Source: Acidobacteriota bacterium (GTDB lineage Bacteria > Acidobacteriota > Vicinamibacteria > Vicinamibacterales > JAKQTR01). Taken from it: 29,045 bases of DNA. The translations under genes were made by a program, and so were the position numbers. The stretch is from positions 1 to 29,045 of the forward strand of contig JAPKZP010000326.1 of the NCBI GenBank assembly GCA_026393735.1, in the 5' to 3' direction. How positions within the stretch are numbered: position 1 is the stretch's first letter; every line of letters begins with the position of its first letter. The notes beneath the pieces were generated by a model. The model searched no databases. It saw only the letters and a list, made by a program, of their open reading frames with translations, and had not been told where the DNA came from. This document shows positions 1-5,556 of the stretch, piece after piece.

Positions 1-2
1 CG

Positions 3-965
3 GGCGACGATGCGCTGTCCGGTGGCGTGACCGTGTCGTGCCTCCCGGGGTCCGGATCGACGTTCGGGCTGGGCTCCACGGTGGTGTCCTGCGTGGCGAC
101 GGACGGTGCGGGCAACACGGCAACGGGCACGTTCACGGTGACGGTCCGCGACACGACCGCGCCGGTTGTGACCGTGCCGGCGGCTATCACGGTCGAGGCG
201 GCGGGCCCGACGGGCGCGCCGGCAACCTTCTCGGCCTCAGCTCTCGACGCGGTCGCCGGGAGCCTCGTGCCGGTCTGCACGCCGGCATCGGGCAGCATCT
301 TCCCGCTCGGCGCGTCCTCCGTTACCTGCGCGGCGGCGGACAGCGCCGGCAACACGGGCACGGCGTCGTTCGTCGTGACGGTCCGCGACACGACTCCGCC
401 GGTGTTGGCGCTTCCCGCCCCATTGACGGTTGCGGCCTCGTCGGCGTCTGGCGCCGTGGTTTCGTTCACGGCGTCGGCGACTGACCTGGTCGGCGGGGCG
501 GTGACACCGGTCTGCACGCCCTCGTCTGGTGCGACGTTTGCGATTGGAACTACCCCTGTCACCTGCACGGCCACCGACTGGGCCGGCAACCGGGTGAGCG
601 GTTCCTTCACCGTCACGGTGCAACTGCAGTACGGGTTCCTGAACGTCAAGAACCTGCCGCCGCCGTCCGGAACCGCCGCCAAACTCGGCAGTTCCCTCCC
701 GCTCTCCTGGCGATGGACACTTGGCGGAACGGCCGTGAACTCGGCTGATGCGCTCCCGTTGATCACCATCACGGGCCCTTCCGGCGCCACAACGACGTTT
801 ACGCCGGAGAGCCCTGGAAGCAGCTCGTTCCAGTACTCCAGTTCCACCTTCACCTGGCAGTTCAACTGGCAGACGAAGGGACTCGCGGCCGGCTACTACG
901 CCGTGACGGTGACGAGCCGCAAGACAGGCCAGGCCTACAGCGGCGGCCAGATTCAGCTGAAGTAG
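3..965 (+). CDS. HYR-repeat surface/secreted protein with C-terminal PxKF-like domain (5'-partial)
   Basis: The frame is open from position 3 (GDDALSGGVTVSC...). It has repeats with an exact 237-bp/79-aa period (147-383, 384-620, plus a partial upstream copy) of HYR type: DTTxPV...TF..A.D...G...V.C.P.SG..F.LG...V.C.A.D.AGN....F.VTV. The C-terminal domain YGFLNVKNLPP..K.GSSLPLSW...FQY...TWQFNWQT resembles PxKF domains. Confidence 0.8.
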   Translation, partial: GDDALSGGVTVSCLPGSGSTFGLGSTVVSCVATDGAGNTATGTFTVTVRDTTAPVVTVPAAITVEAAGPTGAPATFSASALDAVAGSLVPVCTPASGSIFPLGASSVTCAAADSAGNTGTASFVVTVRDTTPPVLALPAPLTVAASSASGAVVSFTASATDLVGGAVTPVCTPSSGATFAIGTTPVTCTATDWAGNRVSGSFTVTVQLQYGFLNVKNLPPPSGTAAKLGSSLPLSWRWTLGGTAVNSADALPLITITGPSGATTTFTPESPGSSSFQYSSSTFTWQFNWQTKGLAAGYYAVTVTSRKTGQAYSGGQIQLK

Positions 966-1035: not shown

Positions 1036-1992
1036 TCAGCGCATCGGGTCGGCGTCGAGCGTGCCGAGGCGCCACGCCAGCCATGCGTGCGCCCGAGGCG
1101 CGATGGCCAGGCAGACGCCCGCCAGGATGGCCCCGGCCAGCACGTCCACGACATAGTGGTACCGCAGGTAGACCGTCGCCACGATCAGCAGTGCGCCAAT
1201 AATCGTTATTGGCCATCGGACGCGAAGACGGTACCGCCAGCTCCAGGCGATGGCCACGAGCGTCATCATCGTGTGACCGCTCGGAAACGCATCGCGGGCG
1301 GCGAACTCGATCGCGATGGTGTCCGGCACCCCGGTCGGAACCCCTGCCCCGCCGTCGATGATCGACCGCAACCATGGCGTGAGCCAGATCCCCGGCAACT
1401 CGCGCGCGATCGCCGCAGAGTCGGTGAGCGTGAACCGTGGTCCGATTGCCGGCATGCTCAGGTAACCGACGTACAGCAGGTAGAAGCCAAAGCCACACAC
1501 GAACGCCCACTGGCGAAAGCGCGCCTCCCGTCCCGACGCGTACAGCTCGGCGGCGACAGCAAGGAAGAACACGTAGAAACACGCGTACGCGACCTGCAGC
1601 ACCTCCGTCACTGCCGGGGACGCAATGGGCTGCAGCCAGATCGTGGGGTCCATTCCGAACAGCCGGCGATCGGCAGCCATCAGCCACCCGTCCCAGAGCC
1701 TGTCGCCGTGGCTGAGCCGCGTGACGACCAGCACGCTCCGGTACACCGGGTAGACGACGAGCGCGAGCGACCAGTCGTGGACGACGCGGATGACGGCAAG
1801 GTCGAGGTACGTCCGTACCCACGCCAGGAGCGGCACGCCGCAGACGATGGCCGCGCACACCAGCGACACCGGAAGCGCTTCAGGAGGCCCGGCAGCCAGC
1901 ACCCCGGCGCTCGCGCCCGCGACGGTGGCGACGACCATCGTCAGGACGTCAACCGCGCAGAGGCGCCGCGCGATCCCCCAGGCAGCCATCAT
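1036..1992 (-). CDS. PAP2-superfamily integral membrane phosphotransferase/phosphatase, Aur1/IPC-synthase-like (PAP2_3)
   Basis: Multiple hydrophobic segments. Motifs YLSMPAIGPRF, DAFPSGH and ATVYLRYHYVVD match the PAP2_3/Aur1 catalytic His/His-Asp arrangement. Confidence 0.85.
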   Translation of the reverse strand: MMAAWGIARRLCAVDVLTMVVATVAGASAGVLAAGPPEALPVSLVCAAIVCGVPLLAWVRTYLDLAVIRVVHDWSLALVVYPVYRSVLVVTRLSHGDRLWDGWLMAADRRLFGMDPTIWLQPIASPAVTEVLQVAYACFYVFFLAVAAELYASGREARFRQWAFVCGFGFYLLYVGYLSMPAIGPRFTLTDSAAIARELPGIWLTPWLRSIIDGGAGVPTGVPDTIAIEFAARDAFPSGHTMMTLVAIAWSWRYRLRVRWPITIIGALLIVATVYLRYHYVVDVLAGAILAGVCLAIAPRAHAWLAWRLGTLDADPMR

Positions 1993-1995
1993 CCG

Positions 1996-3120
1996 TCACA
2001 GGGCCTTGCGGAAGCACCGGCGACGCCGGTGCTGGCGCGGGTGAAAGGGCGGCCACATCGCCAGGACCTTCTCGTTTGTCTCGAGCATCGGTCCGGTCTC
2101 TGCATGTCTGATGCCGTGCGCCAGGCACGGCTTCCAGAATCCGTTCATGATGACCGCGGGAATGCCCTTGTTCTGCAGATCTGCCCGTACGGCAATCAGC
2201 AGCAGATCGAGCCGATCCGCAGCGTTCATGGCACGCAGGATGTGGATGAACCCGAACGGGAACAGGCGCCCCCGACATTTCTGCAGCGCTCTCGACAAGG
2301 ATGGCATCGCGATGCCGAACGCGGCCACGCGGCCCTCGCGATCGAGGATGATCTTGACGAATTCGTGGTTGATGAACCCGAAGAACGACTTCGTGTACGC
2401 CTGCACCTGGCGATCCGTGAGCAGCACCACGCTGTAGAGGTCCTTGTAGGCCGCATTGACCAGCGCGAAGACGCCCGACACGTGCGGCAGCAGGTCGCGC
2501 CGGTGACGAGTTTCGAGCAGCCGCAGCTTCGACCGCTCGAGGACCACGCGGGCGAGGCGATCGACGTTGTCGGGCATCGCCGCCGGCACGGGCACCTCGA
2601 ACTCGATCCAGTCGACGTCCTTCTCGTAGCCGAGACGCTCGAGCCGGGCCGGGTAGTACGGAAAGTTGTAGTTCGTGATCAGCATGTCGAGTTCATCGAA
2701 CCCCTCGACGAGCATGCCCTCGCGATCCAGGTCGCAGAATCCCAGCGGCCCGTGGATCTCCGTGAGGCCGCGCGACCGGCCCCAGTCCTCGACCGCCCCG
2801 AGGAGCGCGCCCGCCACCTCGGCGTCGTCGACGAAGTCGATCCACCCGAAGCGCACCCGGGACCGCTGCCACGTCTCGATGTACCGCTGGCTGATGATGC
2901 CCGCGATGCGGCCGGCCGGCTGCCCGTCCCTGTATGCCATCCAGTACCGCGCCTCGCAGTACTCGAACGCCGGGTTCCGGTCGCGGCGAAGCGTGCTCAG
3001 TTCCTCGCCGACCAGCTTCGGGACATAGTGCGGGTGATTCCGGTAGAGCACGTCCGGAAACGCCACGAACCGCTTCAGATCGGCGTCCGATCGGACTTCG
3101 CGAATCTCAATCATCGCCAC
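1996..3120 (-). CDS. GNAT-fold YghO-family protein, similar to bacterial ceramide synthase (bCerS)
   Basis: Motifs NPAFEYCEARYWMAY, GRIAGII, RFGWIDFVDD, IHGPLGFCDLDREGMLVEGFD, YNFPYYP, LDLLLIAV..DLQNKG and ETGPMLETN..V are recalled from the YghO/Bacteroides-type family. GGAGGA-like RBS at 3131-3136. The stop is 3 nt before the PAP2 start. Confidence 0.75.
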   Translation of the reverse strand: MAMIEIREVRSDADLKRFVAFPDVLYRNHPHYVPKLVGEELSTLRRDRNPAFEYCEARYWMAYRDGQPAGRIAGIISQRYIETWQRSRVRFGWIDFVDDAEVAGALLGAVEDWGRSRGLTEIHGPLGFCDLDREGMLVEGFDELDMLITNYNFPYYPARLERLGYEKDVDWIEFEVPVPAAMPDNVDRLARVVLERSKLRLLETRHRRDLLPHVSGVFALVNAAYKDLYSVVLLTDRQVQAYTKSFFGFINHEFVKIILDREGRVAAFGIAMPSLSRALQKCRGRLFPFGFIHILRAMNAADRLDLLLIAVRADLQNKGIPAVIMNGFWKPCLAHGIRHAETGPMLETNEKVLAMWPPFHPRQHRRRRCFRKAL

Positions 3121-3160
3121 GTCGCACCCATCCTCCCGGGACGCCCGCCTGACGCATGCC

Positions 3161-4234
3161 CTACCGCTCCGACGCGCGCAGCAGTTCGGCGAGGTATGGC
3201 TTCCAGAGCGGCGCGACGGTATGGCTGCCGTGGCCGCGGGTCTCGCCGCTCAGCGGAATGACGACGGCGCGGCCCTTCGGCACGCGCGTGATCTCACGCT
3301 CCAGGATGCCCAGCTCCGGCGGGTTCACCAGGTCGTCCGCGGAATTCACCGCGACGAGCGGCGCGCGGATGGTCTCGCGCGCCGGCTCGGGATCGTAGTC
3401 CCACGACGCCTCGAGCGCGTACAGCACGTCGTTGGCGTCGGCCGTCCTGACGTAGGTGCTCACGTAGTTGTCGAACCAGGTGTCGGCCGCGGCGAGTGTC
3501 GGCGACTCCTGCTGGCGCAGGACCGGATTGCTGCTGACCAGGGCCAGCACGCCGGCGGCCAGCCGCAAACCGCCCGGCTGCGTGGCGTAGTTGCCGCCCT
3601 GCCAGGCCGGATCCGTGCGAATCGCATCGATCGCAATGCGGCGCCACATCCGGTTGCGTCCAGAGATCTGGGCCGGTACGCTCGCCAGCGGCATCAGTGC
3701 GCCCACGTAGTCCGGATACATCTCGCCCCACAGCCACGCGTGCATCCCGCCCATCGACGTCCCGATCACGAGGCGCAGGTGGTTCACACCGAGCCCTTCG
3801 GTCAGCAGCCGGTACTGCGCCGTGACCATGTCGCGGTACCCATAGTGCGGGAACGTCGCGCGCAGGCCGTCGCTGGGTTTGCTCGACTGGCCGTGGCCGA
3901 TGTTGTCCACCAGCACGATGAAGTACTTCGTCGCGTCGAGCAGTTGGCCGGCACCGAACAGCTCGCCTGCGAAATCCGGGCGCAGGAACTGTGCGCTCGA
4001 CCCCGTCGTGCCGTGGAGCACGAGCACGGCGTTGCGGACGGTCCCCGATGCGTCTTTCCGCGGCTGGCCCAGGGTGCGGTAGTGCATCTTCAACCCGGGC
4101 AGCGCCCCGCCCCTGCTGAAGGCGAAGTCCTTCACGACGTAATCGCCCTGGACCGGCGAGGGATATTCCGCAGCGGTCGCGGGCGCGACGACGAGGCACG
4201 CGAGAAGAACGGTCAACCAGGTGGCTGTGCGCAC
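3161..4234 (-). CDS. Secreted alpha/beta hydrolase, homoserine O-acetyltransferase (MetX)-like fold
   Basis: Signal peptide MRTATWLTVLLACLVVAPATA, LHGTTG, nucleophile motif GTSMGG, catalytic-type Asp (ADDLVNP) and His (GHGSHT). Confidence 0.8.
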   Translation of the reverse strand: MRTATWLTVLLACLVVAPATAAEYPSPVQGDYVVKDFAFSRGGALPGLKMHYRTLGQPRKDASGTVRNAVLVLHGTTGSSAQFLRPDFAGELFGAGQLLDATKYFIVLVDNIGHGQSSKPSDGLRATFPHYGYRDMVTAQYRLLTEGLGVNHLRLVIGTSMGGMHAWLWGEMYPDYVGALMPLASVPAQISGRNRMWRRIAIDAIRTDPAWQGGNYATQPGGLRLAAGVLALVSSNPVLRQQESPTLAAADTWFDNYVSTYVRTADANDVLYALEASWDYDPEPARETIRAPLVAVNSADDLVNPPELGILEREITRVPKGRAVVIPLSGETRGHGSHTVAPLWKPYLAELLRASER

Positions 4235-4265
4235 GAGTCTCCCTCCGGCAGCGGACCACGCAATG

Positions 4266-5081
4266 TCAGTGAACGCCCAAGTATAGCGAGCGCGCGGTCA
4301 GTTCGCGATGGTCGAGGCCGGCGGCGTGGTCCAGGCGCGCGACCACGTCTGGCAAATCGGCGGGAACACGCCACAGGTCTTCACGCCCGCCCGCCGCCAC
4401 GAACGCGGTGCGCCAGCCGTCCCACCACGGCACGCTCGTCCTGGCAATCGGCTCGACGATGAGGACGCGCGCGCCGCGGGCGTGCGCGGCGACGAACTCG
4501 CGCAGCATGCGGTCGCGCGTCTCGTCCGGCAGCTCGTTGACGGTGAACGCGGCGACGATCGCCGAGGCGCGCGACGGCACGCGCACGCGCCCGACGTCCG
4601 CGCAGCGCACGTCGGCGTCGAGCCCGAGCGCCTTGCAGGTCCAGCGGGCCTCGTCGGCTGCCCACGGGTGCCGATCGAAGCCGGCGATGCGCGGGCGCGG
4701 CGTACACGCGAGCGCCCAGGCCGCACCGGCTACGCCGGTCCCGCACCCGAGATCGACGATGAGGCCCGGCGGGCCGGCGTCGGCACCGAGCGCGCCGACA
4801 ATCGACTGGACCATCAGGAAGTGAAGCGGCCCGTAGAAGAGGGCGAAGGCCGCTCGCTTGCCGGCGCCGTCCAGGGCCGCGCCGTGGCCCAGCCGGTCAC
4901 GCCGCTCGACATAGGCGGACGACAGCGCCCGCAGCGCCCGGGCGATCTCGACCGGTCGCAGGTCGGCGAGATGCCGCGCCTCGAGCGCCTCGATCCACCG
5001 GGCGACGACGGCGTCGTCACGCCCTGCGTCATTCGGATCCACCGCGTCAGTGTACCGCCTTTTCCGGACCGGCCGGCGCAT
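4266..5081 (-). CDS. Class I SAM-dependent methyltransferase (possibly Rsm22-like); start uncertain (ATG 5081 or GTG 5042)
   Basis: Motif I VDLGCGTG, acidic end of strand 2 (GFDRH), and AAFTVNEL and LIVEP motifs. Confidence 0.75.
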   Translation of the reverse strand: MRRPVRKRRYTDAVDPNDAGRDDAVVARWIEALEARHLADLRPVEIARALRALSSAYVERRDRLGHGAALDGAGKRAAFALFYGPLHFLMVQSIVGALGADAGPPGLIVDLGCGTGVAGAAWALACTPRPRIAGFDRHPWAADEARWTCKALGLDADVRCADVGRVRVPSRASAIVAAFTVNELPDETRDRMLREFVAAHARGARVLIVEPIARTSVPWWDGWRTAFVAAGGREDLWRVPADLPDVVARLDHAAGLDHRELTARSLYLGVH

Positions 5082-5094
5082 GCGAACCCGCGCC

Positions 5095-5132
5095 ACTATA
5101 AGTTCGACTGCTGCAGCCGCTCGCGGGATAAT
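5095..5132. promoter_or_regulatory. Candidate divergent sigma70 -10 elements
   Basis: TATAGT on the minus strand (5100-5095) faces the methyltransferase. GATAAT on the plus strand (5127-5132) lies about 7 nt before an in-frame GTG at 5140, a possible leaderless start. No clear -35 boxes. Confidence 0.3.
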
Positions 5133-5556
5133 GCACGACGTGGGCGTGCTTTCACCATCGCAGCGGACATTCATGCTCGCACTCGCATTGCGCCTCGTGC
5201 CGGCGGCGGCGGCGATGACGGCTGCCGATCACAGCGTGATGCTCCAGCTTATCGACGGCACGCTGGCCACCCGGCCGGCGGCGATGCGACGGCAGTTCTC
5301 GCTGTTCCTGCTGATCCTCCGCTGGGCACCCGCGCTTCGCTACGGCCGTCCGCTCGATCATCTGCCCCCATCCGCCCAGGACGCCGCGCTTCGCTGGTTT
5401 CAGCGCTGCGACGTGTTGCGCTTCCGCAGCGGGTTCTGGGGTGTGCGCACGCTGGTCATGCTCGGCTACTACGGACGGCCTGACCTCGGCCCGTCCATCG
5501 CGTATACGCCATCCACCAGCGGCAACGCGGTGCTCCATGCTCGAACGCGACGCTGA
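5131..5556 (+). CDS. Gluconate 2-dehydrogenase subunit 3-like small partner of GMC oxidoreductase (start ATG 5131 or GTG 5140)
   Basis: Small helical ORF with the typical ending GFWGVRTLVMLGYYG...IAY. It overlaps the GMC start by 20 bp. Confidence 0.7.
   Translation: MHDVGVLSPSQRTFMLALALRLVPAAAAMTAADHSVMLQLIDGTLATRPAAMRRQFSLFLLILRWAPALRYGRPLDHLPPSAQDAALRWFQRCDVLRFRSGFWGVRTLVMLGYYGRPDLGPSIAYTPSTSGNAVLHARTRR

Follow-up and report, generated by a model that had tools for sequence, protein, structure and literature searches.

A candidate gene pair for a ceramide synthase-like N-acyltransferase and an Aur1-like head-group transferase in an uncultured Acidobacteriota bacterium

The window, a 29,045-nucleotide stretch of DNA from an Acidobacteriota bacterium, carries two closely spaced genes on the minus strand. 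The first (positions 1996-3120) encodes a tandem-GNAT protein of 374 aa, which belongs to the bCerS/YghO family of N-acyltransferases and is predicted to be a ceramide synthase. The second (1036-1992) encodes a PAP2_3 protein of 318 aa, an integral membrane enzyme of the Aur1/sphingomyelin-synthase type that is predicted to transfer a phospho-head group to ceramide. On the minus strand, the 3' end of the GNAT gene reads ...F R K A L TGA, followed by CGG and then by ATG ATG GCT... of the PAP2 gene. The distance of 3 nt on one strand, noted in the first-pass annotation, was exact when read from the sequence: CGG at 1993-1995 (minus strand) is the spacer that separates the stop codon of the GNAT gene from the start codon of the PAP2 gene. 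Two recurrent neighbours lie on the same strand, a gene for a secreted MetX-like alpha/beta hydrolase (3161-4234; NCBIfam PRK06489, 512 bits), located 40 nt upstream of the GNAT gene, and a gene for a SAM-dependent methyltransferase (4266-5174; Pfam Methyltransf_25). No match to class I/II aminotransferases was found on the contig of the window (C369), in agreement with the first-pass annotation, which saw no serine palmitoyltransferase (SPT) gene in the window.

The GNAT protein was aligned by BLASTP over its full length with E. coli K-12 YghO (residues 6-374 against 20-390; 26% identity, E 1e-39). Family look-ups gave only a chance-level match in NCBIfam, no PDB sequence was matched, and the score for Pfam GNAT (Acetyltransf_1) was sub-threshold at 17.7 bits. 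The AF2 model (pLDDT 83) showed a tandem GNAT fold. The best two Foldseek matches in Swiss-Prot AFDB were the Caulobacter vibrioides bCerS (A0A0H3C8X0; CC_1154/CCNA_01212) and YghO (Q46840), each with TM 0.87, over 390 aligned columns for the Caulobacter enzyme; the MshD mycothiol acetyltransferases followed at about TM 0.6, and the matches in PDB were tandem GNATs. The window GNAT (374 aa) and the Caulobacter bCerS (384 aa) share this fold, but their identity is only 26% and they belong to different clades as judged by where YghO falls. The window gene adjoins a PAP2 gene and does not lie in an spt/cerR neighbourhood. In E. coli K-12, yghO is annotated as a putative regulator and adjoins IS5.

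The GNAT tree contained YghO as its only characterised sequence of the bCerS family, and no sequence from Caulobacter, Porphyromonas or Bacteroides. The window GNAT was placed in clade I, unlike YghO, which was placed in clade II (SH-aLRT 99) together with 16 spt-adjacent acidobacterial homologues. We know of no characterised member of clade I. This clade, with 99% support, includes GNATs encoded in full PAP2_3-Spt-GNAT-epimerase operons of Saprospiraceae, which are 49-50% identical to the window GNAT and are accompanied by an Spt of 676 bits on NF047600 (cut-off 640). As in the window, these operons (L228, 1557-5875; L244) encode a clade I GNAT together with a PAP2_3 enzyme. The four genes are contiguous there and the Spt lies above the curated cut-off, whereas the pathway in the window genome is split over at least three loci, and the two PAP2_3 proteins are very distant from each other (17-26 bits). 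The kinship to bCerS proposed in the first-pass annotation was thus upheld in part: the best folds are those of Caulobacter bCerS and YghO and the clade has members in spt operons, but the protein falls outside the clade of YghO and the spt-adjacent homologues. A reading that the GNAT lies outside the bCerS clade and hence has another function was dropped in view of the same-clade members in complete spt operons and the Spt-type genes that accompany lone copies.

Window-type GNATs of 45-57% identity were detected across many phyla, usually standing alone. Spt-type enzymes were found together with a lone clade I GNAT in five of six named genomes; these alpha-oxoamine synthases (AOS) scored higher on the Spt model (519-570 bits) than on the Kbl model (270-349 bits). 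One named carrier of the GNAT, Paradesulfitobacterium ferrireducens, had no AOS at E <= 1e-40. Among 301 sampled Acidobacteriota genomes, a count that takes in the unpublished genome G024, there were 70 whose AOS reached 415 bits or more on NF047600, and every one of them had a YghO-like GNAT; the 216 genomes without this GNAT all lacked such an AOS. The solitary occurrence of most window-type GNATs could also indicate that the protein N-acylates another amine, for example that of an amino acid, amino alcohol or lyso-lipid, and that the gene pair serves to form or modify an N-acyl lipid of a non-sphingoid kind. Besides Paradesulfitobacterium, this reading draws on one metagenome-assembled genome that carries the pair (G301) and has no Spt-group AOS, and on the sugar and thiol acetyltransferases found within the GNAT fold family. 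It is judged quite unlikely, as opposed to it stand the same-clade GNATs in complete spt operons, the strict association between YghO-like GNATs and AOS of the Spt type across the phylum sample, and an Spt-like/KdsR-like pair, described below, that occurs in the same genome and, in a relative, shares a contig with the GNAT-PAP2 pair.

The PAP2 protein was matched by Pfam PAP2_3 (PF14378; 73.6 bits, cut-off 27; E 2.4e-20) and by PAP2_C (32.6 bits, cut-off 27). The motifs FPSGH and YLRYHYVVD, recognised at first reading, were confirmed at residues 236-240 and 275-283, and both motifs, with the triad of H240 (PSGH), H279 and D283 (HYVVD), were invariant or nearly so in 28 homologues. The triad of Aur1 consists of H255, H294 and D298, and the spacing of 39 residues between H240 and H279 is the same as that between H255 and H294 of Aur1 (PMC13133130). 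By folding, the AF2 model (pLDDT 92) was most similar in PDB to Aur1 (9ivc_A; E 3.8e-4, TM 0.46) and IPC synthase (9vj4_A; E 6.9e-4), a modest similarity, and both were ranked ahead of PgpB, SMSr and LpxE. In Swiss-Prot, the best folds were IPC synthases, the B. thetaiotaomicron PI-DHC synthase and SMS1/2. Yeast Aur1 (PDB 9ivc; P36107) thus shares with the window protein the PAP2_3 family, the C2 His and C3 HxxxD triad and the 39-residue spacing, and is its best solved fold match, yet the identity is 16-19% and the TM only 0.46-0.47. No Kei1-type partner is known from bacteria.

Phosphatases such as PgpB and LpxE have the PAP2 fold and the H-H-D triad as well, and the triad is therefore not proof of transferase activity. 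The GNAT could be a ceramide synthase while its PAP2 neighbour is a lipid phosphate phosphatase, with ceramide-1-phosphate, phosphatidylinositol phosphate, lipid A or undecaprenyl diphosphate as possible substrates. In line with this, PgpB and LpxE were also among the fold and sequence matches of the window PAP2, its more distant relatives adjoin LPS-type glycosyltransferase genes without any GNAT, and most of the wider PAP2 family shows no linkage to a GNAT. We nevertheless regard a phosphatase as unlikely, given that the best solved and Swiss-Prot folds (Aur1, the IPC synthases, the PI-DHC synthase and SMS) all belong to enzymes that transfer phospho-head groups to ceramide and precede PgpB and LpxE, that PAP2_3 and PAP2_C are families of the Aur1/SMS type, and that in the PAP2 tree the lineages branching just outside the window clade are the PAP2s of spt operons.

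A bacterial precedent for an Aur1-like transferase is BT_1522 of Bacteroides thetaiotaomicron, a PI-DHC synthase encoded in a genome with SPT, myo-inositol-1-phosphate synthase (MIPS) and PIP synthase (PMC9246714). BT_1522 (Q8A7K2; NF052609) was among the fold matches of the window PAP2. On the NF052609 model, the window protein scored 17.8 bits against a cut-off of 480, and hence it is not an equivalog of this family. The window PAP2 gene is not clustered with MIPS or PIP-synthase genes.

Five more loci were found at which the GNAT and PAP2 genes adjoin; their flanking genes differ, and two orientations of the pair occur among them. The conservation of the pairing that had been looked for was thus found, but only within a narrow acidobacterial lineage, a subclade whose GNATs are 65-75% identical. 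In the sister genus G198, the GNAT and an Spt-like gene were present and no PAP2 was found. Among the wider PAP2 relatives from a metagenome scan (39-54% identical), an adjacent upstream GNAT was present in 1 of the 41 with enough upstream sequence, and the pairing therefore does not extend to the wider PAP2 family in general. Both this confinement to close relatives and the sharing of the flanking methyltransferase and hydrolase genes are as plain synteny would predict, if the two genes were neighbours by descent with unrelated functions. Such an explanation is very improbable, because adjacency has outlasted changed flanking genes, a convergent orientation (L199) and a duplication of PAP2 (L299); in addition, relatives of the window PAP2 also pair with a third YghO-like lineage, and more distant PAP2_3 genes are found in spt-GNAT operons.

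Candidate partner genes of a sphingolipid pathway were located elsewhere in the genome. By tblastn with the Spt-like protein of the sister genus, a 3' fragment of an Spt-like gene was detected at the end of contig C92 (4539-4946), encoding the C-terminal 120 aa or so, and the tail of a KdsR-like short-chain reductase (SDR), the neighbour of the Spt-like gene, was detected at the end of C196. The fragment on C92 is 76-81% identical to the G198 protein and 90% to P0249. The genome search for spt proposed at first reading thus yielded an Spt-like gene fragment, of a divergent family: the best NCBIfam model for the G198 protein is Spt NF047600, at 417 bits and below the cut-off of 640. Among solved proteins, the one from G198 is closest to the S. 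multivorum SPT, with 326 bits compared with 278 for KBL. In G198, the Spt-like gene is divergent to the adjoining SDR gene, for which 3-ketodihydrosphingosine reductase is the second-best model. The Spt-like protein was grouped with Spt at SH-aLRT 86, and by the AU test (p 0.64) it is compatible with either side of the Spt/Kbl split. In a relative, the SDR/Spt-like pair and the GNAT-PAP2 pair were found together on one contig (ENA contig_21328; 763,670 bp). A reading of the genome as having two Kbl copies only and no Spt, and hence no sphingolipid module, was dropped once the Spt-like and SDR fragments at these two contig ends had been detected. MIPS, another enzyme for which a search had been proposed, was also present, together with a PIP-synthase-like gene; the MIPS gene was not clustered with PIP synthase or PAP2.

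These findings altogether favour, at a probability of roughly 0.6, the proposal that the products of the two genes catalyse the final two reactions of a Bacteroides-like but dispersed pathway for phosphate-headed sphingolipids in this uncultured soil-type Acidobacteriota bacterium. The earlier suggestion that the pair forms ceramide and then adds a phospho-head group is supported by homology, fold, motif conservation, gene adjacency and co-occurrence, and from these we infer the substrates, the order of the steps, the head group and the lipid product. In the proposed pathway, the Spt-like AOS and the KdsR-like reductase, encoded at other places in the genome, would supply the long-chain base. 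The tandem-GNAT protein, soluble or peripheral, would then N-acylate this base with acyl-CoA or acyl-ACP to give (dihydro)ceramide. The triad H240/H279/D283 of the PAP2_3 protein would take up the phospho-head group of a glycerophospholipid as a phospho-histidine intermediate and pass it on to the C1 hydroxyl of ceramide, with release of diacylglycerol. The presence of MIPS and a PIP-synthase-like gene in the genome makes phosphatidylinositol the preferred candidate for the donor; on chemical grounds, the head group could equally well be phosphoethanolamine or phosphoglycerol.

Acidobacteriota are among the commonest bacteria in soil, and a literature search for the sphingolipids of this phylum found no paper. 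The predicted pathway for ceramide and its head group provides lipid chemists with a concrete target and with candidate genes. The advance is incremental, as the chemistry has already been described in Caulobacter, Bacteroides and yeast. A bCerS-like gene without a nearby spt should not be dismissed, since its partner may lie elsewhere in a dispersed pathway and may be missed where the assembly is fragmented. We also put forward, tentatively and at somewhat less than even odds, that bacterial ceramide synthases have a second lineage, highly conserved and represented by the window-type GNAT, which serves dispersed pathways in many, mostly anaerobic, phyla, and that this GNAT became coupled to its own Aur1-like transferase in one group of acidobacteria. 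With the same reservation, the groups covered would be Clostridia (for example, Christensenella and Thermoclostridium), Anaerolineae, Spirochaetes, Elusimicrobia and Saprospiraceae. If the role of this GNAT clade is confirmed, sphingolipids will have to be expected in a wider range of bacteria; if the second-lineage reading is true, sphingolipid synthesis is far commoner in those groups than recognised, including in a gut-associated Firmicute.

With respect to the recurrent neighbours, a homologue of the MetX-like hydrolase with 83% identity is located immediately before the GNAT gene in locus L198, and a signal-like sequence is visible at the N-terminus of the window hydrolase. A homologue of the methyltransferase with 71% identity takes this position in locus L299. 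The alignment with the latter starts at residue 60 of the window ORF, and translation of the methyltransferase may in fact begin further downstream than the start codon listed first.

The first-pass annotation had described a GNAT gene and a PAP2 gene 3 nt apart on one strand, Aur1-type motifs in the second gene, and no serine palmitoyltransferase in the window; this description is right in all details. The GNAT gene (1996-3120, minus strand) encodes 374 aa and the PAP2 gene (1036-1992, minus strand) 318 aa, and on the minus-strand reading the TGA of the former is followed by CGG and then by ATG ATG GCT of the latter. FPSGH was located at residues 236-240 and YLRYHYVVD at residues 275-283 of the PAP2 protein, and the 21 matches to class I/II aminotransferases across the assembly all fall on contigs other than that of the window. 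The proposal that the pair forms ceramide and then adds a phospho-head group is supported by homology, fold, gene context and co-occurrence. The contig itself begins within a gene (2-965, plus strand) that converges on the PAP2 gene; its product looks extracellular, is rich in Thr, Ala and Val, and is repetitive, with modules of about 80 aa that recur.

The GNAT protein was scarcely detected by Pfam and NCBIfam models, and no sequence relative was found in the PDB. Its membership in the YghO-like family, which includes the bacterial ceramide synthases (bCerS), was nevertheless verified by an end-to-end alignment with YghO of E. coli K-12 (26% identity, E 1e-39) and by the best fold matches. 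The AlphaFold model, made with 24 homologues, gave a mean pLDDT of 83, and its top two folds among Swiss-Prot models were the 'Bacterial ceramide synthase' of Caulobacter vibrioides NA1000 (A0A0H3C8X0) and YghO, each with TM 0.87 and 26% identity, followed by mycothiol acetyltransferases at TM of about 0.6. The tandem-GNAT fold was confirmed by comparison with solved structures. According to published work, N-acylation in the bacterial ceramide pathway is carried out by bCerS (CC_1154), a peripheral membrane protein located in the cytoplasm (PMC11087976, PMC11324152).

Among 301 sampled Acidobacteriota genomes, including an unpublished one (G024), 85 carry YghO-like genes, commonly in several copies. 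In trees including 60 loci from these 85 genomes, the family splits in two at 99% SH-aLRT. Clade II includes YghO and 16 acidobacterial genes directly adjoining an alpha-oxoamine synthase (AOS), several of which also adjoin a PAP2 gene, whereas the window GNAT belongs to clade I. Taken alone, this placement would speak against a ceramide synthase, but clade I also includes sphingolipid gene contexts. Two Saprospiraceae MAGs carry a compact operon of PAP2_3, serine palmitoyltransferase (Spt), GNAT and epimerase genes (L228, 1557-5875; also L244), in which the GNAT is of clade I, not of the YghO clade, with 49-50% identity to the window protein, and the Spt scored 676 bits on NCBIfam NF047600 (curated cut-off 640). 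Two acidobacterial clade-I genes are likewise located in AOS-GNAT-epimerase clusters. In five of six named genomes in which a window-type GNAT stands alone, an AOS favours the Spt model (519-570 bits) over the glycine C-acetyltransferase (Kbl) model (270-349 bits). Within the acidobacterial sample, a YghO-like GNAT is present in each of the 70 genomes in which an AOS reaches 415 bits or more on the Spt model, and such an AOS was found in none of the 216 GNAT-less genomes; the count is purely descriptive, because the sampled genomes are related to one another. It covers genomes with clade I as the sole copy (G156, G197, G085 and G297). Clade I is therefore most likely a second lineage of predicted ceramide synthases, acting in pathways whose genes are dispersed.

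The PAP2 protein scored 73.6 bits on Pfam PAP2_3, and the PAP2 and PAP2_C models were also over cut-off. For its AlphaFold model (pLDDT 92), the best solved folds were the aureobasidin-bound Aur1-Kei1 complex (9ivc_A, E 3.8e-4) and then an inositol phosphorylceramide (IPC) synthase (9vj4_A), with PgpB, SMSr and LpxE ranked lower; the best named Swiss-Prot folds were fungal IPC synthases, the phosphoinositol dihydroceramide synthase of Bacteroides thetaiotaomicron, and sphingomyelin synthases. The Aur1 triad H255/H294/D298 (PMC13133130) corresponds to H240/H279/D283, with a His-His spacing of 39 residues in both, although the triad does not discriminate transfer from hydrolysis because PAP2 phosphatases share it. 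A score of 17.8 bits against the cut-off of 480 excludes the PAP2 protein as an equivalog of BT_1522. In the PAP2 tree it falls in a group of nine (95% support), all nine with an adjoining YghO-like GNAT, and just outside its wider clade are the PAP2s of acidobacterial spt operons; spt-GNAT-PAP2 operons were seen in the acidobacterial sample. As to the head group, the search for a myo-inositol-1-phosphate synthase gene succeeded on contig C815, and contig C272 carries a CDP-alcohol transferase gene whose best models are all inositol-phosphate transferases, with scores under the cut-offs. Both genes were also found in the sister genus (G198), in MAG G301 and in a Saprospiraceae MAG. Phosphatidylinositol, the donor in yeast and Bacteroides (PMC9246714), is thus a plausible candidate donor here.

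Conservation of the pairing was observed, but narrowly. The two genes are adjacent on the same strand at four further loci (L198, L200, L201 and L299) and convergent with overlapping 3' ends at L199, with variable flanking genes; at L299 (5092-9117) the order is methyltransferase, GNAT and a tandemly duplicated PAP2_3. In close relatives, homologues of the methyltransferase (71% identity) and of the secreted MetX-like hydrolase (83%) encoded upstream in the window recur beside the GNAT. On the other side, G198 carries the GNAT and lacks the PAP2 genome-wide, the GNAT stands alone at 75 of 80 named-genome loci, and among 41 wider PAP2 relatives whose upstream region was available, a GNAT directly upstream was seen in only one. 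On metagenome contigs (L118, L126, L134 and L156), PAP2 relatives of 48-54% identity are paired with GNATs of a third lineage of the YghO-like family, which argues for a functional rather than accidental link. GNATs of this third lineage lie upstream or downstream of PAP2 relatives (these four loci, L086 and L082). The convergent pair of L199 adjoins a gene for an 881-aa LtaS-like sulfatase-family membrane protein (2711-5356).

The worry that spt is missing from the genome is largely answered. The window's assembly is a 4.2-Mb MAG of 821 contigs (96.9% complete, contamination 3.1%), in which a first AOS search detected only Kbl types: a gene on C672 and another divided between C505 and C473. 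The halves of the latter sit at two contig ends, and it could reflect a genuine second copy, heterogeneity among strains or contamination. In the sister genus G198, contig C55 carries an additional AOS gene, with Spt as the best NCBIfam model (417 bits; Kbl models 303-352, BioF 349) and the SPT of Sphingobacterium multivorum as the best solved relative (326 bits versus 278 for KBL). It is divergent from an adjoining short-chain dehydrogenase (SDR) gene, for which 3-ketodihydrosphingosine reductase was the second-best model in a near tie with a generic SDR model. By tblastn with these two proteins, two matches were obtained in the window's own assembly, overturning the Kbl-only result: the C-terminal 120 or so residues of the Spt-like protein, cut off by the end of C92 (4474-4946, minus strand; 76-81% identity), and the last 39 residues of a KdsR-like SDR at the end of C196 (2716-2832, minus strand; 72% identity). 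A full-length database protein matches the C92 fragment at 90% identity. The Spt-like/SDR pair therefore exists in this organism inside an assembly gap, and since the genes are divergent neighbours in G198 and at L324, the stretch missing from the assembly between these two contigs probably measures about 1.7 kb and holds the 5' parts of both genes. In a related organism, a single contig of 763,670 bp carries both the SDR/Spt-like pair (L324) and the GNAT-PAP2 pair (L200), about 350 kb apart; two more large contigs, matched by size alone, appear to carry both GNAT and Spt-like gene. The Spt-like enzyme is, however, atypical: its family forms a long branch joining the Spt group at 86% SH-aLRT (45-row tree), and a Kbl-side placement was not rejected by the AU test (p 0.64). 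The family is clearly distinct from the AOS type of GNAT-less genomes of the same order, which is the sole AOS type in G301, a MAG with the GNAT-PAP2 pair.

Of more interest than the pair itself is a by-product of the analysis: the window-type GNATs form an unusually conserved clade of wide distribution. Identity of 45-57% was observed across many phyla, including Anaerolineae, Spirochaetes, Elusimicrobia, Saprospiraceae, Ignavibacteria and Clostridia, the last represented by Christensenella sp. MSJ-20, Thermoclostridium caenicola and Paradesulfitobacterium. The cultured Christensenella sp. MSJ-20 (NZ_CP076563; L235/L294) and T. caenicola DSM 19027 (L241/L302) have, elsewhere in the genome, an AOS of 545-570 bits on the Spt model versus 320-349 on the Kbl model. 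These gene contents suggest a capacity for sphingolipids in both, for which no report was found in a literature search. In two Acidobacteriota (G227 and G267), a divergent 460-aa AOS on its own long branch far from Kbl and Spt has as neighbours a GNAT of clade I and a reductase of the epimerase family (L061, 6260-9987; L062), and this cluster possibly serves a different long-chain base.
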